A DNA stretch of 64,000 nucleotides from Candidatus Latescibacterota bacterium (lineage in GTDB: Bacteria > Latescibacterota > UBA2968 > UBA8231), in the NCBI GenBank assembly GCA_965215195.1, contig CBDCDC010000002.1:2752001-2816000 (forward strand). Reading direction: 5' to 3'. Of this stretch, positions 4,094-23,921 are shown piece after piece. The notes beneath the pieces were generated by a model. The model saw only the letters and a list, made by a program, of their open reading frames with translations, was not told the DNA's origin and did no database searches. Position numbers and translations under genes: made by a program. Each line of letters starts with the position of its first letter. The stretch's first letter is position 1.

Positions 4094-4133
4094 TTCAATT
4101 ATGGCGACGCCTGTCTTATAACCAATGGTGCTA

Positions 4134-5351: not shown

Positions 5352-5358
5352 TAGTGGG

Positions 5359-6144
5359 CTACAAGCTAAATTCCGCGATGGACAAGCGGACGAATCCATT
5401 TTCATCGGGTTGCAACCCGTGCCACTGAACCAGCAGGTTGAAGGTGGCCATGGCAAAGCTCAGATGCGCTCTAAAGTAGGCCCAGGCTCGATGGGTCTGT
5501 CGCTTGAAGTGCCCGATGCGGGTCAGCATGGAAAAGACGGTCTCGATGACCATACGCTCGCCCCACGTTTTGCGGGGACACACTTTCAGATTGGCCGGAT
5601 CACCGGCTTTGGCATGAAAGCCTTGGTCGCTGAGGAGGATCATCTGCTCTTCGTAGCGGCCAATCATCGGGTGAAAGACCGTATCGTGGACATTGGCGGT
5701 ATTACAATCCCAATCGACGATCAAGCCCCATTGGTTGACGATCAAGCCCAGCTTGCCGCCGACGATCCAGCGGTGATTGGACCGCCCTTTCCGGCCGATA
5801 GGGTGAGCGGAGCGGCCTTCGCGTACTGGATGGATCAACTCGATGCCATAGCTATCGATCACGCCTAAAGGGGTGGGGTCCGCTCGAAAGCGATCGGTCC
5901 AGTCCGCATGGGCGGCAAACAGGCGGAACAAGCGGGTGCGCTCGGGCAGGCGCGGAAAAAAGGCGCGCCAATCGCGCGCTACCCAGCGATAAAACGCCCG
6001 TTTGCCGCCCCCTTTGAGCGCATACAGAACCGCCAAGGTCACCGTTTCGCTGGGATATAAGGCGGCTTGGGGGTGTTTGGGCACATCGCCCATCTGGTGG
6101 TCGATTCGACAGAACAGGGCTATTATAAACTCGGCCGTGGTCAT
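5359..6144 (-). CDS. IS982-family DDE transposase
   Basis: IDSYGIE, GGKLGL, SDQGF and RMVIETVFS motifs; AAGGAG RBS before MTTAEF. Confidence 0.85.
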   Translation of the reverse strand: MTTAEFIIALFCRIDHQMGDVPKHPQAALYPSETVTLAVLYALKGGGKRAFYRWVARDWRAFFPRLPERTRLFRLFAAHADWTDRFRADPTPLGVIDSYGIELIHPVREGRSAHPIGRKGRSNHRWIVGGKLGLIVNQWGLIVDWDCNTANVHDTVFHPMIGRYEEQMILLSDQGFHAKAGDPANLKVCPRKTWGERMVIETVFSMLTRIGHFKRQTHRAWAYFRAHLSFAMATFNLLVQWHGLQPDENGFVRLSIAEFSL

Positions 6145-6252
6145 GGGACGCTCCTTCGCTGAAAGGGGGGATACCCTCAGCGTAGGAACTACCTTGACCA
6201 CGGTCAACTCACTAGCACCATTGGTTTATAGAACTGACGTTACGCAGTGCCT

Positions 6253-6558
6253 CTACTCGGCGGCGTTTAACAGGGACCTAAAGGCTTCGAGGCTGGGCAC
6301 CTGTATGGCCGCCCGAAACAACTGATTGAGGCGCTGCACATCGTCAATCGCTCCAACGCGAGTGCCTAATGGATCCGACGCGGCCAGCCCAAAGCGAATC
6401 GCCAGCACGTCGAGCAGATCTTTAATGGCGCGTTCTCGACCTCCTTGCTCAATGCCCTTCTCCGTGAAATACTGCACTACCGACGATTCGTACATAGTCT
6501 CCTCCGAGATGATGGTCATGATGGTTTCTACGTTATACACCAATCCGCTTCGCGCCAA
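6253..6558 (-). CDS. Rpn/DUF4351-like C-terminal domain, stand-alone or remnant
   Basis: MYESSVVQYF.EKG.EQG...LAIRFG...IDD...L..L...AI...SLEAF pattern; no nuclease domain. Confidence 0.6.
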   Translation of the reverse strand: MARSGLVYNVETIMTIISEETMYESSVVQYFTEKGIEQGGRERAIKDLLDVLAIRFGLAASDPLGTRVGAIDDVQRLNQLFRAAIQVPSLEAFRSLLNAAE

Positions 6559-6739
6559 GGCGGTGGTTCAGAGGGGCGGAGGGGGATAGGAGGTGCTGGA
6601 GTGTAGCGAAAAGGATACAGGGATGGGAAGTTGGGGACAAAAGCGGCGTTAGGAATACGACAAAATGCAGCCCACATTCTTGCCATCGGCGCGGCGGAGT
6701 GCGTATCTATATGGCAGCTCTTTGCGAGAGGAAGAGACC

Positions 6740-8530
6740 GTGAAAACGCTAAAAGGCCAAACGCGCACTGCACCGCCGCTATGGGCGGTCTTGGAGCGGC
6801 GACTGATCGACGCTATCGACGAGGCGGCACCGATCTTTTTGGAGAAGTACACCCGCCCCGGCGGGGCGCTGATCTGGATGGAAGAAAACCCCGGCGACGG
6901 GGTCTGGGCCGACGATCTGTACGAGGCATTCTTCAACTGGCCTCATTACTATGCCCTAGGCGGCAGCGAGTACACGGGCGTCAAGGCCCTAGAGGAATGG
7001 AACGCCATTACTCGGCAGCTAGAGCACGACTACGGCCGCGTCACCCGAGAGTTTATCAACGACGACGACTGGTTCCACAACGCCGAAAACTACATCTACT
7101 TCTATCACTTGGGGATGGCCGATCCGACCAACGCCGAGACGCGCCGCCGGGCGCAGCGCTTTGCCGGATTTTACTTAAACGACGACCCAGCCGTGCCCAA
7201 CTACGACCCCGAGCACCGCATCGTGCGCTCGCCTTGTAGTGGCAGCAAGGGGCCGCTCTTCCAAATGCGGCGCGGCGAAATCCGCTACGACCTCACTCAC
7301 GACCACGCCACGTTGGGGCCGGGCTCTGATTTGCCCGCCAACTGGTGGGAGGACCCCGAGACTAAACGCCGCGTTGAGGAGTGCTTTGACCAAGTGGTCA
7401 TGCAGGGCGACGTGACCGTCAACTTAGGCGTCACCGCGCTGGTGGCAACGGCCTTTCTCCACACCGGCGCGGCGCGGTATCGGGAGTGGATAGAGGAATA
7501 CGTGGGGGCTTGGATAGAGCGCACCGAGGCCAACGGCGGCATCGTCCCGGACAACATCGGCCCCAACGGCATGGTCGGCGAGATGCGTCAAGGGCAGTGG
7601 TGGGGCGGGCTGTACGGCTGGACCGGGCGCTATGGACACGGCATGATGGCCCACGCGATCACTGCGGCCGTGGAAGCCGCGCTGTTGGTCACGGGCGAGA
7701 CCCGCTACTTAGACCTGCTCCGCATGCACTTAGATGCGCTAGTTGAGCACGGCCGCGAGCAAGGGGGGCGGCTGCTCGTGCCCTACAAGCACGCGGATGA
7801 GGGTTGGACCGATTTCAACCCCATCAATCCCAATGCGCCGATTCACTTGTGGGCTGCGTCCATGGAGGAGCGGGACTGGCAGCGGCTGGAGACCTTGCGC
7901 CGAGGGGCCGAAGGCGAGTGGAGGCAAGTAGGGCAGCGCGGCCCGCGCTCGCTCGACGACCGCGCTTGGACCCGCTTCTTAGCTGGCGAGTCCCCGGATT
8001 ACCCCGAGCGCATCTTGCAGGCCAACTACCGAGAAGTCTGCGACCGCATCGCCAAGGTCATGGGCGATGAACAGGATCTCACTAAGCTCGACGTGCATTG
8101 GTGGCAGCAGGTCAACCCAGTGGTCACTGAAGCCTTGGTGCAGCTAACGACCGGCGCGCCGCAGACCATCTACTGGGGCGGGTTGGCGCAAGGGCGGGTG
8201 CGCTATTTCGACAGCGAGCAGCAGCGGCCGGGTTTGCCCGCGGACGTAGCCGCCTTGGTGACCGGCCTCAGCAGCGAGGGTGTAGAGCTGACGTTGGTCA
8301 ACTTGAGCGCGAGCCGCCTGCGGCACGTGATCGTCGGCGCTGGCAGCTTTGGCGAGCACTGCTTTGGCCGGGTGCGCGCCGGCAGTGAGGTTCTCGACGT
8401 GGATAGCACCTATTTCCAAGTCGAATTGGCACCGGCCAGCCAAGTCGAGTTGTCGCTCGCCATGCAGCGTTACAGCCAGCAGCCCAGCTTTCGCCAGCCT
8501 TGGCACGGCGAACAGATTCCATATCGCTAA
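6740..8530 (+). CDS. Conserved hypothetical protein (possible alpha/alpha-barrel enzyme)
   Basis: About 600-aa ORF with DDLYE, DWFH and PDNIGP motifs; GTG start after GAGGAAG. Confidence 0.7.
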   Translation: MKTLKGQTRTAPPLWAVLERRLIDAIDEAAPIFLEKYTRPGGALIWMEENPGDGVWADDLYEAFFNWPHYYALGGSEYTGVKALEEWNAITRQLEHDYGRVTREFINDDDWFHNAENYIYFYHLGMADPTNAETRRRAQRFAGFYLNDDPAVPNYDPEHRIVRSPCSGSKGPLFQMRRGEIRYDLTHDHATLGPGSDLPANWWEDPETKRRVEECFDQVVMQGDVTVNLGVTALVATAFLHTGAARYREWIEEYVGAWIERTEANGGIVPDNIGPNGMVGEMRQGQWWGGLYGWTGRYGHGMMAHAITAAVEAALLVTGETRYLDLLRMHLDALVEHGREQGGRLLVPYKHADEGWTDFNPINPNAPIHLWAASMEERDWQRLETLRRGAEGEWRQVGQRGPRSLDDRAWTRFLAGESPDYPERILQANYREVCDRIAKVMGDEQDLTKLDVHWWQQVNPVVTEALVQLTTGAPQTIYWGGLAQGRVRYFDSEQQRPGLPADVAALVTGLSSEGVELTLVNLSASRLRHVIVGAGSFGEHCFGRVRAGSEVLDVDSTYFQVELAPASQVELSLAMQRYSQQPSFRQPWHGEQIPYR

Positions 8531-8685
8531 GAAGCCGTCTGAAAATTCCGGGTATCGTCCTTCACGTGCAGAAAATCGAGGGGCGCGGGCGTCTCGCCCT
8601 CGTAGAACGCTCCCTCCGAGGGCCGCTCGACCGCTGCTCAACGCTTTGTCACGCCTAAAGGCGCAGTGAAGCAGACAACTTCTAA
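8528..8685. repeat. MITE-like intergenic element, copy 1
   Basis: Ends TAAGAAGCCGTCTG / CAGACAACTTCTA; similar along its length to the reverse complement of 30768-30940. Confidence 0.75.
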
Positions 8686-8705: not shown

Positions 8706-9452
8706 ATGGACCAAGCCGACCGCGATTTTTTTGCCGCAAACGGCTATCTCAACCTAGGGCAGGTGCTGGACGACAGAGAAGCGCAATACTTCCGCGCCAT
8801 GTTCGATGGAGATATGGAAAAGTATCCCTATTTCTGGCACCGCTACGGCTACCACCAACACGCCAACTACGAGGCACTGATCACCTCGCCGCAATTCGAC
8901 GAACTGATCCGCCATCCGAAGATCTACCCGACGATCGAGGCCCTAATGGGCGGGCCGCTCTGCTTTGGCGAGATCGGGCTGCGGCTGATGCGGGCCTACG
9001 ATGGCCCGTTGCACCAAGGTTGGCACCGCGACAGGCCGCATTGGGACGAGCATCCGTTCCGCATGGACTACATCCAGCTCATGGTCTATCTGTCCGATGT
9101 AGACGAGGGAACGCATTGTTTTTCCCTGTCCCCGGAGTCGGTAAGCCAGTCGGTGCTCGAAGATAGGGAGGAGCAACTCAAGCGGGGCGGCGAGTACCAC
9201 TTGCACGGGCCGGCCGGGACCTGTGCGCTGTTTAACGTGGCAGTGCTGCACACGGCGACGACGCGGCCCACGCAAGCCGAGCGGCGGACCGCGCAGATTT
9301 ACTACGGGCATCGCAGCCGGGCACCGCTGGCGAACGATTCGACTATTCCAGCGGCGTTTTGGCGAGAGAGCGAAGATGCGGAGACGCGGGCTTTTTACGG
9401 AGTTTTGAACGAGCGCACCAAGGCGTATTTGGCGGCCTTCCCCGGCGCTTGA
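8706..9452 (+). CDS. Phytanoyl-CoA dioxygenase (PhyH) family protein
   Basis: F..NGYL start, WHRD motif, distal LH. Confidence 0.85.
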   Translation: MDQADRDFFAANGYLNLGQVLDDREAQYFRAMFDGDMEKYPYFWHRYGYHQHANYEALITSPQFDELIRHPKIYPTIEALMGGPLCFGEIGLRLMRAYDGPLHQGWHRDRPHWDEHPFRMDYIQLMVYLSDVDEGTHCFSLSPESVSQSVLEDREEQLKRGGEYHLHGPAGTCALFNVAVLHTATTRPTQAERRTAQIYYGHRSRAPLANDSTIPAAFWRESEDAETRAFYGVLNERTKAYLAAFPGA

Positions 9453-9465
9453 CCCATTCCCCTCC

Positions 9466-10677
9466 TTGAGGGCGGGGAGATGGCGAGATCAGGTTATTTT
9501 GCACACCCCCCTGTTGAACATCGCACTCACTGACTTAGTGGACATTGCAGTCGTCGGTCTGCTGCTTTGGGGTCTAATAGCGTGGACCCGCCGAGTGCAT
9601 ACGCGGATGGCCCTGCTCGGCTTGGCTTTTTTGGGCGTCTTCTACCTGATAGCGCAGCAATTCAAGCTGCAGCTAACAACTTGGATATTCCAAGGCTTTA
9701 TCCCGGTGCTATTAGTGGTGGTGGTGATAGTCTTTCAAGATGATTTGCGCCGACTCTTTGAGCAGATCGCCGCGCTCGGTCTGCGCCGCAAGGGTCCGAG
9801 GCTGGACGAAACCAGCATAGGGAAGCTGAGCAGGGGATTGGATAGGTTGGCGAAAAAAAAACGCGGCGCCTTGGTGGTCCTGCCGGGGCGCGAGCCGATA
9901 GAACGACATTTTTTGCAGAGTGGGGTCCCGCTGGACGCGGAGATCAGCGAAGAACTCCTCGACAGCCTTTTCGACCCGGGTTCGGCTGGACACGACGGCG
10001 CGCTGGTGATGCGCGACAATAGGCTTGTGAGCTTTGGGGTGCATTTGCCGCTTTCCGAGAATAGGGACGAGATGAAAGGGGGCGGTACGCGGCACGCGGC
10101 CGCGTTGGGCCTAGCCGAACGCAGCGATGCCCTGTGTCTGGTAGTCTCAGAGGAGCGCGGCACCATTGGGATCGCCGCGCGGGGGCAACTCGAGATTCTG
10201 AACGCTTCGGACCCGGGCAAATTGTCGAACAGGATCAGAAGCTACTTGCAGCACACAGGGCCCCAAGTGAATGCCCGCCGGGTGGAGTGGCGGCGGTTGG
10301 GGCGGCGTCTGGCGGAAGGTCTTTTGGCCTTGGCCTTGGCCTTGGGCGCGTGGCTGGTCTTGGTGCCGGGCGCAGCGGTTGAGGAAGCGGTGCTCCAAGT
10401 GCCCGTGGACGTGGAGAACATGCCCGAAGGGTATGCACTAACGGCCGTCAAACCTTCAGAGGTGGAGATCGCGGTGACCGGCCTGCGGCGGGCCTTGTTG
10501 TTGGCGAGCAATGCGGATTTCGAGGTCGTCATTGACGCCCATCTCGTCAGGTTGGGGCGGCGGACCTTTGAGGTGTCCGCCCAGTCCGTGCGCCATGCAA
10601 CCGGATTGGAGGTCACCAGCGTCAAGCCAGAGAAGGTAAAACTAACCGTGCATAAAGCGCTAGGAGATGAGCGATAG
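9466..10677 (+). CDS. Diadenylate cyclase (CdaA/DacA) fused to a YbbR-like domain
   Basis: Three N-terminal TMs, IVFQDDLRR, HDGA, GTRHAAALG and VSEERG motifs; then a TM and a VPV..P..V.V beta domain. Exact start uncertain. Confidence 0.85.
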   Translation: MRAGRWRDQVILHTPLLNIALTDLVDIAVVGLLLWGLIAWTRRVHTRMALLGLAFLGVFYLIAQQFKLQLTTWIFQGFIPVLLVVVVIVFQDDLRRLFEQIAALGLRRKGPRLDETSIGKLSRGLDRLAKKKRGALVVLPGREPIERHFLQSGVPLDAEISEELLDSLFDPGSAGHDGALVMRDNRLVSFGVHLPLSENRDEMKGGGTRHAAALGLAERSDALCLVVSEERGTIGIAARGQLEILNASDPGKLSNRIRSYLQHTGPQVNARRVEWRRLGRRLAEGLLALALALGAWLVLVPGAAVEEAVLQVPVDVENMPEGYALTAVKPSEVEIAVTGLRRALLLASNADFEVVIDAHLVRLGRRTFEVSAQSVRHATGLEVTSVKPEKVKLTVHKALGDER

Positions 10678-10750
10678 CGGCGAAGAACGCGCTTTGAGCG
10701 GTGCGGCGGCCCCTACAAGAGACTGCGAACCGAGGGCTGCGTAACGTCAG

Positions 10751-13700
10751 TTAGTCGGGGTTATCTGCTCTCTCTTTTTTGCGGAATGGAATGCCGAGTT
10801 TCCGCAGGCGGCTGCGCAGGGTGTTGGGATGGAGGCCGAGTAAATTAGCGGCTCCTCGGGGGCCGGAAATGACCCCATTAGTGTGGTTCAGCACACGGGT
10901 CAGGTATTGGCGCAGGTGATCCGCAAGCGGCACAATGGCGAATGCACTTTCGCGCTGGTAGGGTCGGGTCGCGCCGATGCCTTGGGCGAAGTGGTCTGGC
11001 TCGAGGGGGCCTCGACGGGCGGCGATGACGGCGCGCTGCACGGCGTGTTCCAACTGGCGCACATTGCCCGGCCAGTCGTAGGCTTGCAGGACTTCGATCC
11101 CGGCGGGGCTGATGGGCGCGACAGGCTGGTTGAGTTGAGCCGCAAGCTGCGTGGCAAAATGGTCCGCAAGAAGCGGAATGTCTTCCGGGCGTTCCCTCAG
11201 AGGGGGAATACGGAGAGCATAGCCTTCGAGCCGATAGAACAGATCGGCGCGGAAGGTTTGGTTGACGATGGCCTGTTCGAGGTTGTCGTGGGTTGCGGCG
11301 ATGACGCGGACATCAACGGGGATGGCTTGGTTGCCGCCGACTCTGTATAGCCGCTGTTCCTGTAGCACCTCCAGCAAGTTCGCCTGCACATCGAGGGCGA
11401 GATCGCCGATCTCATCGAGGAACAGAGTCCCTTGGTTGGCCCGTTCAAACTTGCCGATGTGGCGGTCGTGCGCCCCGGTATAGGCACCTCTTTCGTGGCC
11501 GAACAACTCGTTGTTGACCAGTTCGCGCCCCAGTGTGCCGCAGTTGACGGTGACAAACGGCGCGTCTCGGCGCGCACTCAACTCGTGAATCGCTTGGGCG
11601 GCAAGGCTCTTGCCGGTGCCGGTTTCGCCGAGTAAGAGCACGGTCAGGTCCGTCTCGGCCGCCTCGAGAAAATCGGCTTCCACTTGGCGCATAACGTCGC
11701 TCTGTCCTACGAACCAGCGTTGGAGTACGGCCATGCGGGCGTCGTCGGTGACCTCGAAGTGGACCCTAACTTGCTCGGAATAGGTGAGGTCCCGGTCGAC
11801 GGCTTGGAGACAGAACGCGTACGTCCCCGGCGGGAGCGGCGGGTACTCCACTTGGGTCTCGGCCGTCTGACGCCACGCCGACGTTAGGCCGTCGAGGCGA
11901 TAGCGGTAGATCAGATGAGCGGGCGGATCGAGTGGGCTGGTGCCCGCAAAGCGGATGCGGACGCTATCAGCCGTACTGGGAAAGCGGATCGCTTCTTGGT
12001 CAGCGGCGACCTCGTAGGCGGCATCGGCCTCTACGCTCACGACGACCGCCTGTGGAGATATGTGCCGGGGCGCGTACCGCACTACGCCCCCTTTGGTCGC
12101 CAGATAGAGTGCCCCGTCGCGGCCTTCCGCGAGGTCGCGGACGGTGTTGCACCAGCGGGGCTCAGGCACCTCAACGTGTTGGAAAACTTGGCCGTCGTAG
12201 CCGCATAGCCCACGGCCTTCAGTGCCCATCCACAGCCGCCCGTCGCCGGCTTGGAGGACGCTGGTGACGGTAGCGCACGGCAGCCCGTCGGCTTGGGTGA
12301 AATGACGAATTCGCCCCTCGTTTAGACACAACAAGCCTCGGTTGGTCCCTATCCACAGCCGCCCATCGGCCCCCTCATACAAGGCAAAGATCAAGCAGGC
12401 GGGCGCATCTACTTTTGCACACGTGGTGCCGTCGAAGCGGTATAGCCCGTGCCCTTCGTCCGCAGAGTTTGACCCCAACCACAGATGCCCTTGACGGCTC
12501 CAAGCGAGGGCGTCAATCTGGGTGGGAGTCGCCGAACCGAACCAGCGAACCTGCCCGTCCTCGACACAGCCCAACCCGCCTATGCGCTGATAGGCAAACC
12601 AGACCCGGCCAGATGCGTCCATCGCAAGGGCCGAAATGGAGTCCGGCGACGCGGGTTGGTGCATCAAGTCCATCTGCTGGCTGTCGCAGTCATAGCGGTA
12701 TAGGCCCGTGCCGGTGCCCCCAAACCATACGCGGTTGTCGCGATCGAGGCATAGAGCCGTGATCTTTTCGCATCCGGGGACGGCTATTCTCTCGACACTG
12801 CTCCGTTGGGTGTCAAAACGGACGAGGCCGCCTTCGGTGCTAGTCCACAAGGGGCCGGCGTCGCTCTGGGCAATGCTACTTGTCGCTGGCAGCCCTTGAT
12901 CTGAGCCGAAGACTTGCAGGCGTTGGCTGTCGTAGCAGTGCAGGCCCCTATCGCGGGTGCCTACCCACAACCGCCCGAGGCGATCGACGCACAAACCCCG
13001 CGAGAAGGACAGGTCGCCCCGGTACGCGAAATCCATTTGCTCGCCATCGCAACAGGCCAAGGCCCCCTCGTAAGAGGGCAGGTATATGGTCTCGGAACGA
13101 GGATCCTCTGCAATGGCGAGAAAGTGAGACTGGCGACTGGGCTCCAGCAGGCGGAACTCCCGGCCGTCGAAGACAAAGACGCCGACAGTGGTGGCCAGCC
13201 AAAGGGTGCCGTCGGACCGCGCCAACAAGCCCGTCACCTCGGCGTTGGGGGCTATCTCGTTAAATCGCGCATGTCTGTGAGGTGTGTCACTCATGCGGTC
13301 GTAGGAGTACAGGCTGCGGCCACCGCACCAGATCGTCCCCTGAGTGTCGATAGCTAAGGCGTAGATGCTTTCGCCGTGGAGGGGGGCGCGATCGGTTAGG
13401 GCGATGAGTCTGAGTTGCTGCCCGTCCCAATGCGCTAGCGCGGGAGACGAGTGGAGTTGCTGCTCCAACCCGAACCAGACCCCACCCTCGTCGTCGGCAC
13501 CGCCGCAAAGAAAACTGTGGGACAAACTGGCGGCCAAGGGGTGAAATCCCTCATCGTCGTACCAAGTAAGGCCGCGGTTGGTGCCCAACCACATCTGACC
13601 GGCCACATCCTCGACGATGCTATGCACTCCGTTGCCGGAAAGGCCGTCTTGGTGCGTAAAGGTCGCCACCGTCTTCTGGTCGAAGCAGGCGACGCCGTGG

Positions 13701-13816
13701 TCGCTCGTACCAATCCACATGCGGTCATGGCGGTCTTGATAGAGACACTCGATGGAGGCGTCGGGCAGTCCTTCGGCTGTAAAATGAGACCAGACCCCTG
13801 CCGTTCTGTCCCACAT
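10751..13816 (-). CDS. Sigma-54-dependent activator with N-terminal regulator-propeller repeats and a Y_Y_Y domain
   Basis: Repeated D..G.LW.GT..G blades, YRYRL...[33 protein letters not shown] and a Fis-type HTH. Confidence 0.9.
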
Positions 13817-13838
13817 AAACGATATCCTCCCTTAGTCA

Positions 13839-13980
13839 CGATATATGGTGAAATTGCGATATATGGTGAAATTATCCATATCGTTGTTTTTCTTTAAGTT
13901 AAAGAGATTTAGGGCCGTATCCAAGCAAAAAAACACTAAATGCCGTGGTTTTTGACGATTTTCGCAAAAATGCGACAATA
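13839..13980. promoter_or_regulatory. Candidate activator-binding or autoregulatory sites
   Basis: CGATATATGGTGAAATT repeated at 18-bp spacing; imperfect palindrome TTGACGATTTTCGCAAAAATGCGACAA in an AT-rich intergenic region. Confidence 0.45.
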
Positions 13981-14026
13981 TATCTAATTTACTATTTATA
14001 AAGGACTTACAAGAATAAGTTACTGT

Positions 14027-14042
14027 TGGCACGATAATTGCA
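14027..14042 (+). promoter_or_regulatory. Sigma-54 -24/-12 promoter
   Basis: TGGCAC-GATAA-TTGCA matches the consensus; divergent from the activator gene; IHF-like TATAAAGGACTTA just upstream. Confidence 0.9.
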
Positions 14043-14101
14043 ATTATTGTATGTAGAGCAACGGACACTACATCGGAAAAATAGGCAACGGTAGGCTTTA
14101 G

Positions 14102-14278
14102 ATGTTGACCTCGTTTAACGCGCCGATTTGGGCCCTGCTGCTCAACGCGTTCGTACTCACCTGTTTTGTTCTGCTGGTGTTGTGGTCGGTTTTGCGTCCG
14201 GGTCGCTCGGCGGCCACCGAGGCGAGTTGGGACGCCTCGCAAGGGCTGTCATCGCTGCAGCAATTGCTAGGGGGCTAA
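14102..14278 (+). CDS. 58-aa single-TM protein (not in the ORF track)
   Basis: MLTSFNAPIWALLLNAFVLTCFVLLVLWSVLRPGRS...; first ORF after the sigma-54 promoter; stop is 2 bp before the next ATG. Confidence 0.6.
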   Translation: MLTSFNAPIWALLLNAFVLTCFVLLVLWSVLRPGRSAATEASWDASQGLSSLQQLLGG

Positions 14279-14280
14279 CG

Positions 14281-14892
14281 ATGAATCGGGATAGAAAAGA
14301 CCCTGTGACGATGGCCTTTGGCGTCTTGTTGGTGGTGTTGCTGCCGACCTGTTTCCTGTTGGCAAGCCGCTATCAGTCGCTCGATGAGCGCGAGTTGCAG
14401 CCGAAGCCCTTTGTACCCGCGCCTTCCCCGGAGGTGCTGTTGGCGCAAGTGAGCCACGTTGCATCCGACAGTACGCTCCAACTCCAACAGGTATGGGCTG
14501 CCGAGCCGGAACCGACTTCTGGTTTGGTGGCCGACTACCAAGTCATGCGCGGCGACGAGGCGGTCTATCGGCTGGTGCTGTTCCGCTACGACATCGCTTG
14601 TCGTGTGTGCCGGGACGTGCTGGCTGCCGCCCTGTACGAGGGCGACACACTGGCGCAGATCCTCCTGCTCGACGAGTGGGAGGTGCGCGGCGAGCGGGTG
14701 GATACCGCACGCTTTTTGCGCCAATTCGCCGGTCGCTCGGTGGCGGAGGAACTGGCGCTTGAGTCTAATGTCGATGGAATCAGCGGGGCCACGTTTTCAA
14801 CCGGGGGCTTGGTCGAACAACTCAACACCGCGGCGGCGTGGGTGCGGGGGCATCCGCTGGAGACGCCCGCAAGCGAGGAGAAACGACTGTGA
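14281..14892 (+). CDS. Membrane-anchored FMN-binding (flavinylation motif) protein with CxxC
   Basis: N-terminal TM, CRVC, VDGISGATFST motif. Confidence 0.8.
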   Translation: MNRDRKDPVTMAFGVLLVVLLPTCFLLASRYQSLDERELQPKPFVPAPSPEVLLAQVSHVASDSTLQLQQVWAAEPEPTSGLVADYQVMRGDEAVYRLVLFRYDIACRVCRDVLAAALYEGDTLAQILLLDEWEVRGERVDTARFLRQFAGRSVAEELALESNVDGISGATFSTGGLVEQLNTAAAWVRGHPLETPASEEKRL

Positions 14893-15428
14893 ACGCTCTC
14901 AGACCCAATCGCGGGGCTACGACTTTGATCGTGGCCACGGGCATCCTGTTGGGGGCCTGTACCTTCTTGGCGGCCAAGATCGTCAACCCCCCTCCCATTG
15001 ATCCGCTCGATGTGGAGTTTTGGGATTTGCTGGGTACGCAAGCGGCCGTGCTGGAATTAGAAGATCTGGCGGGCACGGGCACGGTTTCTAACGCGCAATT
15101 TGTGAACCAGCCCTATTTGCTCATTTTCGCCGACTCTGAATGCAGTGCCTGCGAGAGCATCTATCCGCACCTGCTGCGCGCCTCGCAGGTACAAGGAGTG
15201 AATGTCCTGTTCATTGCCTCGGGCGACCGGCCGGCGATGCACGACAAAATGGAGGAACACAGTTTTGCGTTCCCCGTCGCCTTTGATTCCCTGTTGACGG
15301 CGAATGCGCCTTTTGCGGTAAAGGCTTTTCCGGCCGCTGTCTTGGTGGATGCCGAAGGCAACATTGCCAAAGCCGCTACCGGCGACCAGACCGCCATAGC
15401 CGTAATACGCTTGGCTGGAAGGTCCTGA
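14889..15428 (+). CDS. TlpA/redoxin-family thiol-disulfide oxidoreductase
   Basis: N-terminal anchor, CSAC, FPVAFD, cis-Pro loop AFP..VLVD.EG. Confidence 0.85.
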   Translation: MNALRPNRGATTLIVATGILLGACTFLAAKIVNPPPIDPLDVEFWDLLGTQAAVLELEDLAGTGTVSNAQFVNQPYLLIFADSECSACESIYPHLLRASQVQGVNVLFIASGDRPAMHDKMEEHSFAFPVAFDSLLTANAPFAVKAFPAAVLVDAEGNIAKAATGDQTAIAVIRLAGRS

Positions 15429-15443
15429 AAGGATGAATGCGCC

Positions 15444-16010
15444 ATGCAATTTGTAACGCTCTTGCGTCGTCCGGTGGTGTGGACGGTGATGGCCTGTGCC
15501 GCAGTCGTGCTCTTTTTGGCGTTGCGTCCCCCTTCGTCGGCCATCTCGCCCGTGGTCTGGACCGAGCCGTCGGCCAACCCTCTGTCCAAGGTGCTGCGAT
15601 CGGGGGATGCTGCGCCGGACTTCGCGCTGCCGGCCGTGCAGGGTGGCGTTGTAGCATTGAGTGCGTTGCAGGGAAAGTCCGCCCTGATCGCCTTTGTTAC
15701 GGCGGAATGCCCGTATTGTCAAAAATTAAACAAGCAACTCGAAGCCTTTGAACTGAATGCGGATCAACAACTCGTGTTCATCTGCACCGGGGAAGAGGGT
15801 GCGCGGAAGATTAGCGAGACCTATTCCTTTACGTACCCGGTGTTAATTGACTCGGCTGGCGCAGTCTCACAGGCGTACAAGACCCCCGGGGTGCCTACGG
15901 TGTATCAGATCGATACCGAGGGGACGGTGGTGGACTTGGTGGTGGGGTGGCCGCCGGCGTGGGAGTTTGTGCGGGGTTTTGGCCGAGTACAGCCGAGCGA
16001 AGGCTCTTGA
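15444..16010 (+). CDS. TlpA/redoxin-family thiol-disulfide oxidoreductase
   Basis: G..APDFAL, CPYC, YPVLID and GVPT motifs. Confidence 0.9.
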   Translation: MQFVTLLRRPVVWTVMACAAVVLFLALRPPSSAISPVVWTEPSANPLSKVLRSGDAAPDFALPAVQGGVVALSALQGKSALIAFVTAECPYCQKLNKQLEAFELNADQQLVFICTGEEGARKISETYSFTYPVLIDSAGAVSQAYKTPGVPTVYQIDTEGTVVDLVVGWPPAWEFVRGFGRVQPSEGS

Positions 16011-16035
16011 GGCCATTCGCTCAATGACCACTATG

Positions 16036-16136
16036 GCCCAGAAAGGAGGTGCTATCCCGTGTTCGCAGGTTTGATTCCAAGTCAGCGACCACAACGGTTC
16101 GCTGATCCTTTTTTCTATCACTCAAGGAGGATTTAG
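16036..16136 (+). promoter_or_regulatory. Conserved leader (strong SD, short uORF, hairpin plus T-run), copy 1
   Basis: AAGGAGGT, GTG at 16059, TCAGCGACC...GGTTCGCTGA followed by a T-rich run; homologous to the 26038 and 27023 leaders. Confidence 0.6.
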
Positions 16137-16138
16137 TT

Positions 16139-16495
16139 ATGAACTCTTTGCCTTTGTTCTTGCAGTCGGCGCTGCTGATGCCGCTGGTAGCCCCGCTGGT
16201 GGAGTTCGCCACGTCGACCAGCGGCCACGTTGAGCCGCGCCAGGGGTTGGCCTTGGGGTGGTTGGGCAGCGTGGTGGCTGGGCTGGCGGTGGTGTTCGGC
16301 ACGGCCGACCGGGCGCAGGCCGATTCCTGCTACGGGATATCCCCTGGCAGTCCCGGCACTTGGGTCTGCTCCAACGAGATGTGCGCCTTTGATCACCATG
16401 GAGACGGCCTAGCGGCGTATGACAAATACTATGTCCACAGTAGGTCTGACCATGGCTGCAGCAGCACGTCAAGGTCCTGTAGCTGTCCTCCGTGA
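16139..16495 (+). CDS. Exported Cys-rich peptide precursor (long leader ending AQA, 6-Cys core)
   Basis: AAGGAGG RBS; leader shared with the 26140 and 27125 genes; core DSCYGISPG...CSSTSRSCSCPP. Confidence 0.75.
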   Translation: MNSLPLFLQSALLMPLVAPLVEFATSTSGHVEPRQGLALGWLGSVVAGLAVVFGTADRAQADSCYGISPGSPGTWVCSNEMCAFDHHGDGLAAYDKYYVHSRSDHGCSSTSRSCSCPP

Positions 16496-16562
16496 TCTAC
16501 CATCCGGGTATATCGCGGCTGTCCAAACAGGAGGATGGTTCTACAGTAAGTGCTGAGAGGTA

Positions 16563-16603
16563 TAGCCCATGTGGCACTCTCGGGCCGGGTGCCACATGGG
16601 CTA
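16563..16603. other. Perfect 15-bp inverted repeat (RNA hairpin)
   Basis: TAGCCCATGTGGCAC ... GTGCCACATGGGCTA with no T-tract. Confidence 0.75.
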
Positions 16604-17074
16604 ATGGTCCTCTGTTCTACTGCGTCTATCCCTCGAATAGAGGTAGGGTGTTCGATCACCTAACACTTCTTCACTAACTCTGGAGGTGCATTATGCGCTG
16701 CTTGATCGTTGCGATTGGATTATTGGCGGCTCCGCTGGGAGTCTTGGCCATAACGTGGGATTTTGACGACGGCACTACTGGGGGCTGGACCGCCCACGAG
16801 AGCGAACTAGGCGATCTCAGGGCCATTACTCCCACCACAGTGTACAGCGAAGTCGAAGCCGGCGTCTGGCGCATTGCGCCGGTGCCGAATGGGCAGATAC
16901 CGGCCATTCGCTTGCTCTCGCCGCTGATTGGGGAAGACTCGGCTCTGTTCGACTCGATCACCCTCCGGCTGCGTATCCTCCACGATCGCCCCACCGGGGG
17001 GAACCTCCTGATGACGTGGTCCAATGCCGAGTCCCGACGCCGCAAGCAGGAAACGGGGGGCCACGAACTAAATA

Positions 17075-17959
17075 ACCAATGGTGCTAGTGGGCTACAAGC
17101 TAAATTCCGCGATGGACAACGGGACGAATCCATTTTCATCCGGTTGCAATCCATGCCACTGTGCCAGCAGGTTAAAGGCGGCCATGGCCGCGCTCAGATG
17201 CGCTCTAAAGTAGGCCCAAGCTCGATGGGTCTGTCGCTTGAACCGGCCAATGCGGGTCAGCATCGAAAAGACGGTCTCGATGACCATCCGGTCGCCCCAG
17301 GTTTTGCGGGGACACACTTTCAGATTAGCCGGATCACCTTCTTTGGCATGAAAGCCTTGGTCGCTGAGGAGGATCATCTGCTCTTCGTAGCGACCAATCA
17401 TCGGGTGAAAGACCGAATCGTGGACATTGGCCGTGTTACAATCCCAATCGACGATCAAGCCCCACTGGTTGACGATCAAGCCCAGCTTGCCGCCGACGAT
17501 CCAGCGGTGATTGGACAACCCTTTCTGGCCGATAGGGTGAGCGGAGCGGCCTTCGCGTACTGGATGGATCAACTCGATGCCATAGCTATCGATCACGCCT
17601 AAGGGGGTGGGGTCCGCTCGAAAGCGATCGGTCCAGTCCGCATGGGCGACAAACAGGCGGAACAAGCGGGTGCGTTCGGGCAGGCGCGGGAAAAAGGCGC
17701 GCCAATCGCGCACTACCCAGCGATAAAACGCCCGTTTGCCGTCCCCTTTGAGCGCATATAGAACCGCCAGGGTCACCGTTTCGCTGGGATATAAGGCGGC
17801 TTGGGGGTGTTTGGGCACATCGCCCATCTGGTTGTCGATCCGATAGAAGAGGGCTATTATAAACTCGGCCGTGGTCATGGGACGCTCCTTCGCTGGAAGG
17901 GGGGACACCCTCAGCGTAGGAACTACCTCGACCACGGTCAACTCACTAGCACCATTGGT
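17075..17959 (-). mobile_element. IS982-family element, copy 2 (intact)
   Basis: 16-bp IRs ACCAATGGTGCTAGTG; TAAATA duplication at 17069-17074 and 17960-17965. Confidence 0.9.
17093..17878 (-). CDS. IS982-family DDE transposase
   Basis: Near-identical to the 5359-6144 protein. Confidence 0.85.
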   Translation of the reverse strand: MTTAEFIIALFYRIDNQMGDVPKHPQAALYPSETVTLAVLYALKGDGKRAFYRWVVRDWRAFFPRLPERTRLFRLFVAHADWTDRFRADPTPLGVIDSYGIELIHPVREGRSAHPIGQKGLSNHRWIVGGKLGLIVNQWGLIVDWDCNTANVHDSVFHPMIGRYEEQMILLSDQGFHAKEGDPANLKVCPRKTWGDRMVIETVFSMLTRIGRFKRQTHRAWAYFRAHLSAAMAAFNLLAQWHGLQPDENGFVPLSIAEFSL

Positions 17960-19822
17960 TAAATAGCTTGTCGGGGTTTTATACGGGCCGTTATCAATAC
18001 TATCCCATCGAATGGGAAAACGTCACGATAGATATACGCGGCTTGGAAGCCGGGGCGGAAGCGAGACGACAAGAGCCGATTGCGACCATTTGGGCGGACA
18101 CGGCGATCACTTGGCAGGACACCCTCTTCCACGTGCAGCTAGACCTCAACGTAAACCGCGACCCCCAGGGTCCGGCCGATCATCCGGCCTTTGTCGAAGT
18201 CGATTGGATTCAACTGACGGGGGCTGAAGAGCTGCTGTTCGGGGAATTGCCGCCCCGGGCGGTCGCTGGGGCGGCCGGGGGGCCCGGAGCGTTATTCGCC
18301 GAGCCGCGTTTTTCTCTGCTGGGCTGGAGTATCGGTAGTCCTCCATTCTCGCAAGGTACGTTGGGCGATATAGATGGCGATGGGGATGCCGATCTGGTGG
18401 TGGTCTGGACGTACTTTGAGTCCATCAAAGTGACCGAAGGGACGTTTGATCGAACGACCCATGCAGGCTGGACGGTCGCGTCCAGCGATGGGTTGGGCGG
18501 CTTGGTCCCCACCCGAGAGGTGCTCCGCGGAGGCGAGCCCCTCATAGGCATTGCGGGGGACGACTTCAACGGGGATGGACTGCTTGATCTGGCCTTTCGT
18601 GGTGGTCGGACCCTCGAATTGTGGCTCAACCGGGGCGAGCATGGTTTTGAAACCATCCTTCAGCTATCCGATGTCTGGCTTGAAGGCCTAGCCGATGGCG
18701 ATGGCGACGGCGATGTGGACCTGTTGGTCACGGAATACGATCCCCTACGGGACGACTACGTATGGTCCGAAGTGATTATGTGGCTCAATGACGGTGCGGG
18801 CGGGTTTGCCCACCGCGATCGGTTCGTCCTCGACACCGAAGAAGAGTTCACGCCTAAGAAGCTGACGACGGGGCAACCGGTGGGCGAGGCCGTGCGCGTG
18901 TTGTGGACCGGAGGGTGCTATGCTGGAGGGGCTCGTCTGACCCAGCCATGGGCGGCCAGCGAGCCACCCCCGCTGTTTCTTGACGCCGAGCTCAATCCCT
19001 GCGACCTGCAGCTAATCACCGATCTGGATGGGGATGGGACGGTGGAGTTGATCGGGACGCCCGAGCGGAATCTATACTTCGACTTTCTTACTGGCATCAC
19101 CTACCACGGTTTGGCGCTGTGGCGGGTGGACGCTGCGGGCAGGGTGGAACGCCACACTCTGCTCGGTCCGCAGGTGATGGTGCCGGATGAGAATTATGGT
19201 GGGGTCCTTGCCCGCGACCTGACTGGTGATGGCCTGCTGGACTTGGCCGTGGTGGATGGCAACCCGGCGACGGGGCCGGCACTGATCGTCTTGGTCGGCC
19301 AGCGCGATGGGGTGCCCGTCGTCGAGGGGCGCTATCCCCTGCCGGGCGTGGGCAGCCAAGTGCTCGCCGGCGATGTCAACGGCGATGGGGCGACCGATCT
19401 GGTGGTGTTGGGCAGGAGTGTGGACGGCGGTTTGGGCGGGGCCTTCGTCTTTCTCAACCAGAGCAGTCCGATGACAGCCGTGGCCAGTGAGACCGCGATC
19501 ACGCCCTCCACCGTTGCCCTCGGCGCGAACTATCCCAATCCATTCAATCCGGCCACGACCCTCCCCGTATCGGTGGCGGCGGATGCGGGCGACGTGGCCG
19601 TAACCATCTACAACGTCTTGGGGCAGCCGGTGCGCGCGGTGTGGAACGGTCCGTTGGCGGCGGGCGAGCATCGGCTGACGTGGGATGGCCGAGACGGGCA
19701 GGGGCAATCCGTTGCCGCCGGGGTCTATCTGGTGCGGCTGCACCAAGGCGACCACACGCGCCTCCGCAAAATGGTCAAAATCGAATAGACGCCCCGAGTC
19801 TATCATCCTCAGGAGGTGCATT

Positions 19823-22015
19823 ATGCGCTGCTTGCTCATTGCGATTGGATTGTTGGCGGCTCCGCTGGGAGCTTTCGCCCTAACGTGGGATTTTGACGAG
19901 GGCACTACGTGGGGCTGGACCGCCCACGAGAGTGAATTAAACTTCGGCACTCTTAATCCCACCACGGTGTACAGCGAAGTCGAAGATGGTATCTGGCGCA
20001 TTGCGCCGGTGCCAAACGGACAGATACCGGCCATTCGCTTGCTCTCGCCGCTGATTGGGGAGGACTCGGCCTTGTTCGACCGGGTCACCCTCCGGCTGCG
20101 TATCATCCATAATCGCCCCACCGGGGGGAACCTCCTGATGGCGTGGTCCAATGGCGAATCCCGACGCCGCAAGCAGGAAGCGGGCCAACTTGGAAGCCGG
20201 TCGGAGTTTTATACGGGCCGTTATCAACTGTATCCCATCGAATGGGAAAATATCACGATAGATATTCGCGCCTTGGAAGCCGGTTTGGAAGCCAGACAAG
20301 AAGAGCCGATTGCGACCATTTGGGCGGATACCTCGATAGTTTGGCAGGACACTCTCTTCCACTTGCAATTAGACCTAAACTTGAACCATAACCCCGAGGG
20401 TCCGGCCGATCATCCTGAGTTTGTCGAAGTCGATTGGATTCAACTGACGGGGGCTGAAGAGTTGCTGTTCGGGGAATTGCAGCCCCGGGCGATCGCCAAG
20501 GCTGGGTTGCCCGGGGCGTTGTTTGCCGAACCGCGTTTTTCTGCTTTGGGTCCGGGTATCGGTAGCTTAGAATCGCAAGGTACTTTGGGCGATGTAGATG
20601 GCGATGGCGATGCCGACTTGGTGGTGGTCTGGACCCACGACACGGTCGTCAAAGTGACCGAAGGGACGTTTGAGAGGACGACCCAAGCGGGCTGGACGGT
20701 CGCGTCCAGCGACGGGTTGGGCGGCTTGGGTCCCACCCGAGAGGTGCTCCGCGGAGGCGGGCCCCTCATGGGCATTGCGGGGGACGACTTCAACGGGGAT
20801 GGACTGCTTGATCTGGCCTTTCGTGATGGTCGGACCCTCGAATTGTGGCTCAACCGGGGCGAGCATGGCTTTGAAACCATCCTCCAGCTATCCGACGTGT
20901 GGTTCGAGGGCTTAGCCGATGGCGATGGCGATGGCGATGTGGACCTGTTGGTCTGGGAGTTCGCCGACCGATTCCACCTACTAGAGTCGCAGGTGATTAT
21001 GTGGCTCAATGACGGCGCGGCCGGGTTTGCCCACCGCGATCGGTTCGTCCTCGACACCGAAGAAGACCTCCGTGCTTTCCTGCTGGCCGGGCAACCGGAG
21101 GGCGAGGCCGTGCGCCTGTTGTGGTCCCGACCGTCCTGCAAGCCTGGGGGGACTTTACGGCTGACCCAGCCGTGGGCGGCCAGCGAGCAGTCTCCGCTGT
21201 TTTTTGACGCCCCGCTCAATCCCTGCGACCTGCACCTGCTCACCGATCTGGACGGGGATGGGGCGGTGGAGTTGGTTGGGACACCCGAGCGGAATCTATA
21301 CTTCGACTTTGATGTTCTCACCACCTACCACGGTTTGGCGTTGTGGCGAGTGGACGCTGCGGGCGGGGTGGAACGCCACACTCTGCTCGGTCCGCAGGTG
21401 CTTCTGCCGGATCCGTATTTTGATGATGGGGTCCTTGCCCGCGACCTGACTGGCGATGGCCTGCTGGACTTGGCCGTAGTGGATGTCAACCCGGCGACGG
21501 GGCCGGCGCTGGTGGTGCTGGTCGGCCAGCGCGACGGGGTGCCCGTCGTCGAGGGGCGCTATCCCCTGCCGGGCGTGGGCGCCGAAGTGCTCGCCGGCGA
21601 TGTCAACGGCGATGGGGCGACCGATCTGGTGGTGTTGGGCAGGAGTGTGGAAGGGGGCGACGGCGGGGCCTTCGTCTTTCTCAACCAGAGCAGTCCGCTG
21701 ACAGCCGTGGCCAGTGAGACCGCGATCACGCCCTCCACCGTTGCCCTCGGCGCGAACTACCCCAATCCATTCAATCCGGCCACGACCCTCCCCGTATCGG
21801 TGGCGGCGGATGCGGGCGACGTGGATGTAACCATCTACAACGTCTTGGGGCAGCCGGTGCGCGAGGTGTGGAACGGTCCGTTGGCGGCGGGCGAGCATCG
21901 GCTGACGTGGGATGGCCGAGACGGGCAGGGGCAATCCGTCGCCGCCGGAGTCTATTTGTATCGGTTGCAGGTGGGCGAGCAGACACGCCTCCGCAAGATG
22001 GTCAAACTCGAATAG
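19823..22015 (+). CDS. Secreted FG-GAP-repeat protein with FlgD/T9SS-like CTD
   Basis: AGGAGG RBS, signal peptide, GDVDGDGDADL repeats, NYPNPFNP...WDG...GVY...KMV. Confidence 0.9.
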   Translation: MRCLLIAIGLLAAPLGAFALTWDFDEGTTWGWTAHESELNFGTLNPTTVYSEVEDGIWRIAPVPNGQIPAIRLLSPLIGEDSALFDRVTLRLRIIHNRPTGGNLLMAWSNGESRRRKQEAGQLGSRSEFYTGRYQLYPIEWENITIDIRALEAGLEARQEEPIATIWADTSIVWQDTLFHLQLDLNLNHNPEGPADHPEFVEVDWIQLTGAEELLFGELQPRAIAKAGLPGALFAEPRFSALGPGIGSLESQGTLGDVDGDGDADLVVVWTHDTVVKVTEGTFERTTQAGWTVASSDGLGGLGPTREVLRGGGPLMGIAGDDFNGDGLLDLAFRDGRTLELWLNRGEHGFETILQLSDVWFEGLADGDGDGDVDLLVWEFADRFHLLESQVIMWLNDGAAGFAHRDRFVLDTEEDLRAFLLAGQPEGEAVRLLWSRPSCKPGGTLRLTQPWAASEQSPLFFDAPLNPCDLHLLTDLDGDGAVELVGTPERNLYFDFDVLTTYHGLALWRVDAAGGVERHTLLGPQVLLPDPYFDDGVLARDLTGDGLLDLAVVDVNPATGPALVVLVGQRDGVPVVEGRYPLPGVGAEVLAGDVNGDGATDLVVLGRSVEGGDGGAFVFLNQSSPLTAVASETAITPSTVALGANYPNPFNPATTLPVSVAADAGDVDVTIYNVLGQPVREVWNGPLAAGEHRLTWDGRDGQGQSVAAGVYLYRLQVGEQTRLRKMVKLE

Positions 22016-22036
22016 ACACATGAACTGGGAGCGGAC

Positions 22037-22276: not shown

Positions 22277-22281
22277 TAAGG

Positions 22282-22521: not shown

Positions 22522-22566
22522 ATAGGGGGGCGCGTGTTAGGTGCTGCCGAAAAGAGAGGGCATAAG

Positions 22567-23901: not shown

Positions 23902-23921
23902 CCCCACTCTGGAGGTTCATT

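Follow-up and report, generated by a model that had tools for sequence, protein, structure and literature searches.

A sigma-54-controlled cassette of Latescibacterota that may process and oxidatively fold a family of small exported cysteine-rich proteins

Introduction

Why should a flavoprotein with a CxxC motif, two membrane-anchored redoxins and a small cysteine-rich (Cys-rich) exported protein be encoded one after the other behind a sigma-54 promoter? This arrangement is found in a Candidatus Latescibacterota bacterium, within positions 10751-16603 of a 64-kb window (contig CBDCDC010000002.1, positions 2,752,001 to 2,816,000), which is the whole stretch of DNA that was analysed here. Bacteria are known to form extracytoplasmic disulfides via DsbA/DsbB or VKOR, with the electrons passing to quinones, and an initial annotation of this DNA had suggested a dedicated disulfide relay for a disulfide-rich peptide family (toxin, signal or metal binder). 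Gene identities in the window were taken from open reading frame (ORF) translations together with Pfam and NCBIfam scans, in which Pfam families were reported at E up to 0.01, and an alignment of the flavin mononucleotide (FMN)-binding protein was searched against genome contigs, which gave 65 loci. On this basis we favour, with a probability of about 0.6, the reading that the cassette is an operon under the control of sigma-54 and its activator, whose products carry out the processing and oxidative folding of a family of small exported Cys-rich proteins. The part of the suggested relay that stood is the company of genes, since FMN protein, redoxins and Cys-rich protein travel together in 14 of 16 loci; the membership of the redoxins in MauD did not stand, and the cargo is more than a single peptide.

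The Cys-rich protein family

The cargo gene (16139-16495, plus strand) encodes a precursor of 118 aa, and AGGAGG is located 8 nt before its ATG. Homologue alignments, AlphaFold and hydropathy, the last giving two hydrophobic segments, were used to describe it. Six cysteines lie at residues 64, 77, 82, 107, 114 and 116, and the leader is bipartite, with an SSG...PRQG motif, a hydrophobic helix and an AQA|D site before a core of 57 aa, so the long leader and six-Cys core of the initial annotation were both recovered.

Homologues of the precursor numbered 182 at E up to 0.01, all of them unnamed or called "hypothetical", and a profile search of 1.84 billion representatives gave 73 clusters (50% identity) at E up to 0.001, nearly all of 90-115 aa. 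Several copies of the family occur per genome (three in this genome, four in another). An alignment of 32 sequences showed that 28 of the 32 invariant columns are in the first 60 residues, and the four invariant columns in the core are all Cys. The leader consensus has a variable start, F/L-x-x-S-x-S-G, x-V-x-P-R-x-G/A-L, about 20 hydrophobic residues and A-x-A, after which the core begins with D-x-C-Y-G-I-P; A61, the -1 residue of the AxA site, is present in at least 90% of sequences. Among 24 diverse members C64, C82 and C107 were invariant and S28, G29, A61 and C114 near-invariant. For syntenic copies, the ratio of nonsynonymous to synonymous substitution (dN/dS) had a median of 0.12 across the leader, from 66 pairs, and of 0.58 across the core, where 52 of the 66 pairs could be used; these values are subject to the quality of the core alignment and to synonymous saturation.

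AlphaFold gave the core (about residues 62-118) a predicted local confidence (pLDDT) of about 90 as three antiparallel strands, and the leader was poorly predicted. When the precursor model was compared with the PDB by Foldseek, we found nothing at E up to 0.001; the best matches were laterosporulins at E 0.67-2.2, which is not significant. A look-alike search of the ESM Atlas reached a best score of 0.81 to an unnamed cluster and gave no lead.

Two further members of the family are encoded downstream. The first (26140-27012, plus strand) has 290 aa; its leader is the same, two Cys-rich core repeats come after it, and the C-terminal sorting domain of the type IX secretion system (T9SS) at its end passed the TIGR04183 cut-off (34.2 bits against 23). 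The second (27125-27991, plus strand; 288 aa) is built in the same way, and its tail matched Pfam Por_Secre_tail with 25.2 bits, under the cut-off of 27. This second paralogue also has an internal partial copy of the hydrophobic segment of the leader (VVAGLAVVFGAVDETPA) before its second core repeat, and it appears to have arisen by recombination within the family. T9SS-tailed fusions were found elsewhere too (P0275, P0317 and L006 18823-19500). TIGR04183 was absent from the 118-aa protein in the Pfam and NCBIfam scans, which means that it does not classify as a type A cargo. T9SS tails imply a soluble periplasmic intermediate, and together with the AxA site they favour release of the core by signal peptidase I. 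The cargo is thus no single peptide: folded mini-proteins in many copies make up the family, and some of them are fused to T9SS tails.

The FMN protein and the two redoxins

The gene at 14281-14892 (plus strand) encodes a membrane-anchored RnfG/NqrC-like FMN-binding protein of 203 aa, which was identified by its motifs, a fold match and a sub-threshold Pfam match. It has one transmembrane (TM) segment at residues 7-31 by hydropathy, CRVC at residues 107-110 and SGAT at residues 168-171, in which T171 would be the flavinylated Thr. The protein had 84 homologues, and both C107-x-x-C110-R-D and D-G-x-S-G-A-T-x-S were invariant in all 18 aligned sequences, down to 39% identity; CTTC[K/R]D was still retained in the more distant FMN proteins of L014 and L016. 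The AlphaFold model (pLDDT 77.5) consists of a long N-terminal helix and a beta-rich domain, and its best Foldseek matches were RnfG (9eri_G, E 2.7e-5; 7zc6_G, E 1.5e-4) followed by NqrC chains. The window protein therefore combines an [S/T]GA[S/T] motif with an RnfG/NqrC-like fold, by which flavinylation was judged, and the FMN-binding/CxxC protein of the initial annotation was upheld, though its Pfam score is low (see below). A complex prediction of its periplasmic domain with redoxin 1 gave a score of 0.00, which counts neither for nor against binding.

The final residue of the [S/T]GA[S/T] motif is where ApbE attaches FMN, and ApbE-flavinylated FMN-binding proteins take part in extracytosolic electron transfer, as described in part of Meheust et al. 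2021 (PMC8238504). The hybrid flavin/thioredoxin clusters in the available part of that paper, namely DsbD/DUF3570/DUF4266 and P19, are unlike the present arrangement. ApbE was not found within 10 kb in the close loci; in L015 an ApbE gene (252.7 bits) immediately precedes the gene for the FMN protein.

The GTG start of redoxin 1 overlaps the stop of the FMN gene (GTGA). Redoxin 1 (14889-15428, plus strand; 179 aa, CSAC) and redoxin 2 (15444-16010, plus strand; 188 aa, CPYC) are TlpA/ResA-like thiol-disulfide oxidoreductases according to Pfam, and each of them, like the FMN protein, has a single N-terminal hydrophobic segment as its membrane anchor. The AhpC-TSA scores were 35.0 and 61.4 bits (cut-off 26) and those for the Redoxin family 27.3 and 53.2 bits (cut-off 26.6), so both belong to these families and carry a CxxC, in agreement with the two TlpA-like redoxins first annotated. 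The CxxC of redoxin 1 was kept in 15 of 16 aligned homologues, the exception being CRAY in L009. In redoxin 2 the first Cys was invariant and the second was present in 11 of 13 sequences, with Ser in L003 and L015; Ser was also found in L014.

The two proteins matched the NCBIfam models ResA, MauD, StoA, DsbE and PedC, all far under their cut-offs. Membership was rejected for MauD (TIGR02661; 31.9 and 28.1 bits against 188.6), whose methylamine dehydrogenase genes were absent from the window, as well as for ResA (38.4 and 51.8 bits against 170) and PedC (19.2 bits against 120). The term "MauD-like" in the earlier proposal can thus be kept for the general thioredoxin fold alone.

Conservation of the cassette among relatives

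Of the 65 loci, 16 (L001-L016) carry the label Latescibacterota or Gemmatimonadota and align over most of the FMN protein, and the matches of the other 49 are mostly limited to the C-terminal flavinylation region. The cassette is restricted to one lineage. By tblastn, the order FMN protein, redoxin 1, redoxin 2 and Cys-rich protein was kept in all 11 close loci, a gene for an A24 (prepilin-type) peptidase, whether intact, broken or cut off, headed the cassette in the same 11, and a gene for an FG-GAP protein with a T9SS domain followed within about 1.2 kb downstream in 10 of them (not in L003).

Three of the five distant loci (L013, L014 and L015) also keep FMN protein, redoxin(s) and Cys-rich protein together. 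The order in L014 is FMN protein, a redoxin with CRAC, a redoxin with CPYS, an A24 peptidase of 386 aa and two 86-aa proteins, each with eight Cys and an analogous leader. L015 has ApbE, FMN protein, a redoxin with CDAC, a redoxin with CEYS, an A24 peptidase of 373 aa and a Cys-rich protein with an analogous leader; L014 and L015 are distant loci, at 32% identity of the FMN protein. L013 encodes a 165-aa membrane protein, an FMN protein, a redoxin with CSLC and a 112-aa protein with seven Cys and an ordinary signal peptide; A24 was not recognisable there, and the 165-aa protein aligns to the A24 profile at 8% probability. L016 is ambiguous, with an FMN protein and a redoxin followed only by a doubtful 65-aa ORF, and L012 has the FMN gene alone. 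Redoxin and FMN genes standing without Cys-rich neighbours in relatives had been named as the finding that would speak against a common role, and this was not the case in 14 of 16 loci; the synteny asked for was thus seen in 11 of 11 close and three of five distant loci.

Several lesions and a second arrangement were also observed in these genomes. Redoxin 2 of L014 (11132-13084) is split by a Mutator-family transposase, and in L009 the A24 gene lies in two frames (8866-9974) and redoxin 1 (10645-11163) has CRAY, which would be signs that the cassette is decaying in other genomes too. L007 has a second cluster (1882-8476) with an A24-like gene (37.9 bits), two redoxins that are 36-39% identical to those of the window, DUF4159 and FG-GAP genes, and no FMN-binding gene.

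Sigma-54 control

The promoter TGGCACGATAATTGCA (TGGCAC-N5-TTGCA, -24/-12; 14027-14042, plus strand) was found by pattern search in the AT-rich region between the cassette and a divergent activator gene. The perfect pattern TGGCAC-N5-TTGCW matched once in 64 kb, where 0.06 matches were expected by chance, and 6 of 100 shuffles had one match or more. When up to two mismatches were allowed there were 31 matches in the window against 34.2 expected, and because these relaxed matches sit at chance only the perfect site stands out. The motif was present at the equivalent place in six of the eight relatives with an intact 5' region (L005, L006, L007, L008, L010 and L011), at a spacing of 45-60 nt to the A24 start, and it was absent at L003 and L009. 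As the lone perfect match of the window, and one kept in relatives, the consensus promoter of the initial annotation is well borne out. Further sigma-54 promoters for the paralogues are not claimed, since the relaxed counts are at chance level, and rpoN was not seen in the 64-kb window.

The adjacent gene (10751-13816, minus strand) encodes a sigma-54 enhancer-binding activator of 1021 aa according to Pfam and its translation. A Reg_prop propeller (150.7 bits) and a Y_Y_Y sensor (38.1 bits) are N-terminal, followed by the AAA+ Sigma54_activat domain (214.9 bits) and then HTH_8 (23.8 bits), and an AAA lid was matched too; the GAYTGA loop is visible in the translation as the GAFTGA type. A hydrophobic segment is absent from the N-terminus. 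Orthologues of 79-82% identity are divergently oriented in L001 and L005, activators of the same architecture are located upstream of the cassette in L003, L006, L008 and L010, and a propeller-type activator adjoins the cassette in six of the nine loci that possess an upstream flank.

Between the activator gene and the promoter, the sequence contains a tandem direct repeat of GATATATGGTGAAATT (two copies, period 18; 13840-13873, plus strand), 154-187 bp upstream of the -24 element, and its core CGATATATGGT is kept as two copies with period 18 in L005 (about 8615-8650). This repeat is a candidate binding site of the activator. An inverted repeat CCTTTAGG-N4-CCTAAAGG followed by a T-run was also seen about 60-110 nt before the A24 start in L006, L007, L008, L010 and L011; it closely precedes the sigma-54 promoter and probably serves as terminator for the gene in front of it.

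The A24 peptidase and its remnant in the window

The small TM protein that the initial annotation placed at the head of the operon exists as an ORF of 58 aa with one hydrophobic segment (14102-14278, plus strand), and no Pfam or NCBIfam family was matched by it. In L010 the gene before the FMN gene encodes a polytopic membrane protein of 379 aa with a Peptidase_A24 match of 27.1 bits (cut-off 26.5), and tblastn aligned the 58-aa ORF with residues 114-159 of this protein at 82.6% identity. DNA comparison with L005 showed two deletions in the window: the first runs from the start codon and removed about 113 codons, including D33 and the G-D93-x-K motif, and the second removed about 616 bp. Promoter, 5' untranslated region and the last ~11 codons survive in frame, so the remnant keeps about residues 114-159 and the last ~11 codons, and both catalytic Asp motifs are gone. 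On tblastn and DNA comparison, then, the 58-aa ORF is a deletion remnant of the A24 gene and does not represent a separate gene family; what had been annotated as a small TM protein is a wrecked peptidase gene.

Relatives with an intact A24 gene have it at the head of the operon, and the encoded proteins, of 370-385 aa, are named "A24 family peptidase" or "prepilin peptidase" by NCBI. Their PF01478 scores were 27.1, 27.5 and 37.9 bits, over the cut-off of 26.5, and that of L015 was just under it (25.3 bits). Full-length A24 was found by tblastn in seven loci (L003, L005, L006, L007, L008, L010 and L011), and it was damaged or incomplete elsewhere, being in two frames in L009, 5'-truncated to residues 237-372 in L001 and interrupted where the contigs of L002 and L004 end. 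In an alignment of 16 sequences down to 25-28% identity, D33, R37, G92, D93, K95, P339 and F340 were invariant, and because D33 and G92-D93-x-K95 are kept in all 16 the intact proteins look catalytically competent. When the A24 protein was compared with the PDB by sequence, nothing matched at E up to 1. An A24 protein of 372 aa is retained in a relative with an FMN protein of 97% identity (P0122, P0228), so the loss in the window is recent.

A peptidase of this kind raises the question of whether the Cys-rich proteins are pilin-like subunits, in which A24 would cut a class III leader, the helix would stay on and the redoxins would make disulfides in the head domain, as DsbA does for type IV pilins. 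The A24 gene within the cassette, the [R/K/Q]-x-[G/A]-L directly in front of about 20 hydrophobic residues and a size near that of short pilins agree with this. The cassette enzyme also resembles PilD, TadV and FlaK in both catalytic Asp motifs, in a C-terminal PF(A/V)P and in substrates with a small residue before a hydrophobic helix, and it weakly matches an archaeal A24 C-terminal domain (18.1 bits). However, we found no pilus assembly ATPase, platform or secretin in the window or in the maps of L012-L016 (the other loci were not systematically scanned), and unlike PilD, TadV and FlaK the cassette A24 stands without pilus genes and contains about 200 aa of additional membrane and soluble sequence. 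The precursor matched no prepilin motif of Pfam or NCBIfam and has no Glu at +5, so it does not qualify as a class III substrate; unlike class III signal peptides, its leader is about 30-35 aa, lacks GFxxxE and is followed by the near-invariant AxA site for signal peptidase I after the helix. The T9SS-tailed paralogues, moreover, require a soluble periplasmic intermediate. We consider pilin-like subunits unlikely.

Proposed mechanism and its weak points

In the favoured reading, that of an operon for processing and oxidative folding, the precursor would enter the membrane via its hydrophobic segment. The A24 peptidase would then trim the cytoplasmic N-terminal extension either at the near-invariant S-G or at the [R/K/Q]-x-[G/A] that directly precedes the helix, and signal peptidase I would cut after the near-invariant AxA and free a core starting with D-x-C-Y-G. 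The two tethered redoxins could form or shuffle the three disulfides of the core, the CxxC of the flavoprotein would recycle the redoxins, and the covalent FMN would hand the electrons to an acceptor, which by analogy would be Erv/QSOX-like logic on an RnfG scaffold. The hairpin that follows the cargo gene may limit read-through or stabilise the upstream message. More specifically, and only tentatively, we suggest a GxGD-type intramembrane peptidase of family A24, working away from pili on the long, near-invariant leader of a conotoxin-like family of hypervariable mini-proteins, combined with a disulfide generator of RnfG fold that has covalent FMN near a CxxC, an analogue of Erv/QSOX, and that feeds two tethered thioredoxin-like proteins. 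A bolder extension would be that the released invariant cytoplasmic leader fragment is a signal sensed by the propeller of the adjacent activator.

Several observations weigh against this reading. TlpA/ResA-type proteins are usually reductants, and the CxxS of redoxin 2 in three loci would be easier to reconcile with an isomerase or mixed-disulfide role than with that of an oxidase. The FMN_bind (PF04205) score of the window protein is 19.2 bits, under the cut-off of 22, so family membership is not reached, and PF04205 is precomputed for 10 of 13 proteins in the group of 181-aa relatives. No gene for ApbE, DsbD/CcdA or an electron acceptor was found in the 64-kb window. Given the usual reductant role, the CxxS of some redoxin 2 proteins and the absence of an acceptor or donor gene nearby, either direction of electron flow is possible. 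Most family copies lie away from the cassette, so "dedicated" would have to mean one cassette with many substrates. The A24 gene of the window is dead, and no intact homologue of this genome was present among the 55 listed (proteins of at least 208 aa, with the best 8000 candidates scored), which means that A24 processing is not essential in this genome unless another peptidase substitutes. Because A24 is deleted and the gene downstream of the cassette is split by an insertion sequence (IS), the cassette here may either be partly decayed or run without dedicated leader trimming.

The cysteines themselves allow another role, in which the Cys-rich protein would be a redox-active or metal-binding component of a flavin electron-transfer chain, with its C-terminal CxC cycling or binding metal. 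C114-x-C116 is found in at least 90% of the close family, and a small secreted CXC protein (DUF4266) occurs with flavinylated DUF3570 and thioredoxin-like proteins in the clusters described in part of PMC8238504. But C116 is not conserved family-wide among the 24 diverse members, the precursor had no match to Pfam DUF4266 (PF14086) at E up to 0.01, which makes the resemblance a functional one only, and a core that is hypervariable outside Cys and multi-copy per genome would be odd for an electron carrier. The T9SS-tailed paralogues also point to surface export, and we give the electron-chain role a small chance.

It was also considered that the redoxins and the flavoprotein form a general reductive or repair pathway, for cytochrome c maturation, copper proteins or oxidative damage, with the Cys-rich gene as an unrelated neighbour. 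The best NCBIfam matches of the redoxins are indeed reductants of the ResA, DsbE and StoA type, all far below cut-off, but the pairing with a Cys-rich gene persists down to 32% identity of the FMN protein, there are no cytochrome, CcdA or copper-protein genes in the window, and the cassette is confined to one lineage (L001-L016 of 65 loci), all of which makes a general pathway very unlikely. That the precursor is a true ribosomally synthesised and post-translationally modified peptide, with a core further modified (thioethers and the like) by enzymes encoded elsewhere, hardly seems credible, because the conserved leader, the variable core and a paralogue's weak sub-threshold matches to duramycin and cinnamycin models (E 0.0037 and 0.038, far under cut-offs) are set against a core of about 55 aa confidently predicted as a compact beta fold and the absence of modification enzymes from the window and the L012-L016 maps (other loci were not systematically scanned).

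Comparison with known systems

Every component of the cassette is from a known superfamily, namely sigma-54 activators, A24 peptidases, RnfG-like FMN domains and the thioredoxin fold, and the combination can be compared with several known systems. Like RnfG/NqrC and other ApbE-flavinylated proteins, the FMN protein has one TM helix and an FMN-binding domain with SGAT, a matching fold and, in L015, an ApbE neighbour. Unlike them, it stands without Rnf or Nqr subunits and has an invariant CxxC[R/K]D, in a region that is mostly uncovered in the 49 matches from outside the lineage. It would resemble Erv/ALR, Ero1 and QSOX, in which a flavin near a CxxC works with thioredoxin-like domains to make disulfides; the cassette flavoprotein differs in its fold, in its predicted covalent FMN instead of FAD and in being bacterial and extracytoplasmic.

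The redoxins share a thioredoxin fold, an N-terminal anchor, a CxxC and a cis-Pro loop with MauD, TlpA and ResA, including the bacteriocin-maturation isomerases PedC and BrcD, and their genes are likewise placed beside a small disulfide-rich exported substrate. The differences are that the cassette has two paralogous redoxins with a flavoprotein partner in place of CcdA/DsbD, and that mau and bacteriocin transport genes are absent from it. With its conserved leader, hypervariable mature part, fixed Cys framework and many paralogues, the cargo family recalls the conotoxin-type superfamilies and leader-guided bacteriocins, although the mini-proteins are bacterial and without homology to them.

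A full-text literature search, supplements aside, found no paper that pairs an A24/prepilin peptidase with a Cys-rich leader-bearing family and none that pairs an FMN/CxxC protein with TlpA-like redoxins, nor was the whole combination, the FMN protein with its CxxC or the family of leader-bearing mini-proteins met with in print; PMC12993501 contains none of the terms thioredoxin, prepilin, FG-GAP, secretion system and sigma-54. The flavin/CxxC protein could realistically be a catalyst of extracytoplasmic disulfides of a new type. If this holds, it would be the first extracytoplasmic flavin-dependent disulfide generator in bacteria, and a flavin-based disulfide route would be added which joins extracytosolic flavinylation and oxidative protein folding. 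The A24 gene of the cassette suggests that prepilin-type peptidases have substrates beyond pili and secretion pseudopili. The cargo family is large and evolves fast, and mini-proteins that disulfides would stabilise in this way are natural candidates for antimicrobial, adhesive or host-interaction roles. The conserved gene set offers a ready kit for heterologous expression.

The hairpin and the downstream region

Between the Cys-rich gene and the FG-GAP gene, folding and covariation identified an RNA hairpin (about 16564-16602, plus strand) with a 17-bp stem and z = -4.18, and 0 of 200 shuffles of the window sequence folded as well. A hairpin follows the Cys-rich gene in all 12 loci compared, with compensatory double changes at 8 of 15 consensus pairs, so the strong hairpin reported after the precursor is both conserved and covarying. 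A T-run is found 3' of it in L002, L007 and L008 and not in the window, where the downstream DNA is less T-rich. A scan for sigma-70 promoters and terminators, whose counts were at chance level, did not call it a terminator, and Rfam had no match within 13700-16800 at E up to 1. The hairpin is likely to be a partial terminator or a 3' stabiliser of the mRNA, and it may thereby set the ratio of the cargo message to the downstream FG-GAP gene.

The gene behind the hairpin (16693-19788, plus strand) encodes an FG-GAP/VCBS protein with a T9SS C-terminal domain, as Pfam and DNA comparison showed, and it is split by an IS into 16693-17088 and 17968-19788. The interrupting IS copy (17085-17960) is one of two copies of 876 bp, the other being located at 5351-6226; they are 94.6% identical, and each encodes a 282-aa DDE_Tnp_1_3 transposase.

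The region 16693-29471 is an island of tandem paralogues, and the same kinds of genes recur around the cassette in relatives. Besides the two T9SS-tailed, leader-bearing Cys-rich proteins, it encodes three FG-GAP/T9SS proteins (the IS-split one and those at about 19820-22015 and 23922-26027) and two DUF4159 proteins (22534-23901 and 28128-29471). A 95-bp fragment at 31008-31102 shares 79% identity with positions 16720-16815, at the 5' end of the FG-GAP gene, and is probably a gene remnant.

Further away in the window, a 1046-aa ORF (54497-57637, minus strand) contains RNA_pol_Rpb2_6, Rpb2_3 and Rpb1_2 in one chain, in the manner of a fused beta/beta'-like polymerase. It is adjoined by a sigma-70-like gene (57634-58420, minus strand), which is present as overlapping ORFs with region 2 at 57887-58420 and region 4 at 57634-57915. 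At 3758-4147 (minus strand), a protein with an Xre/MbcA/ParS-type antitoxin C-terminal domain is encoded beside IS-related genes (4214-5337).

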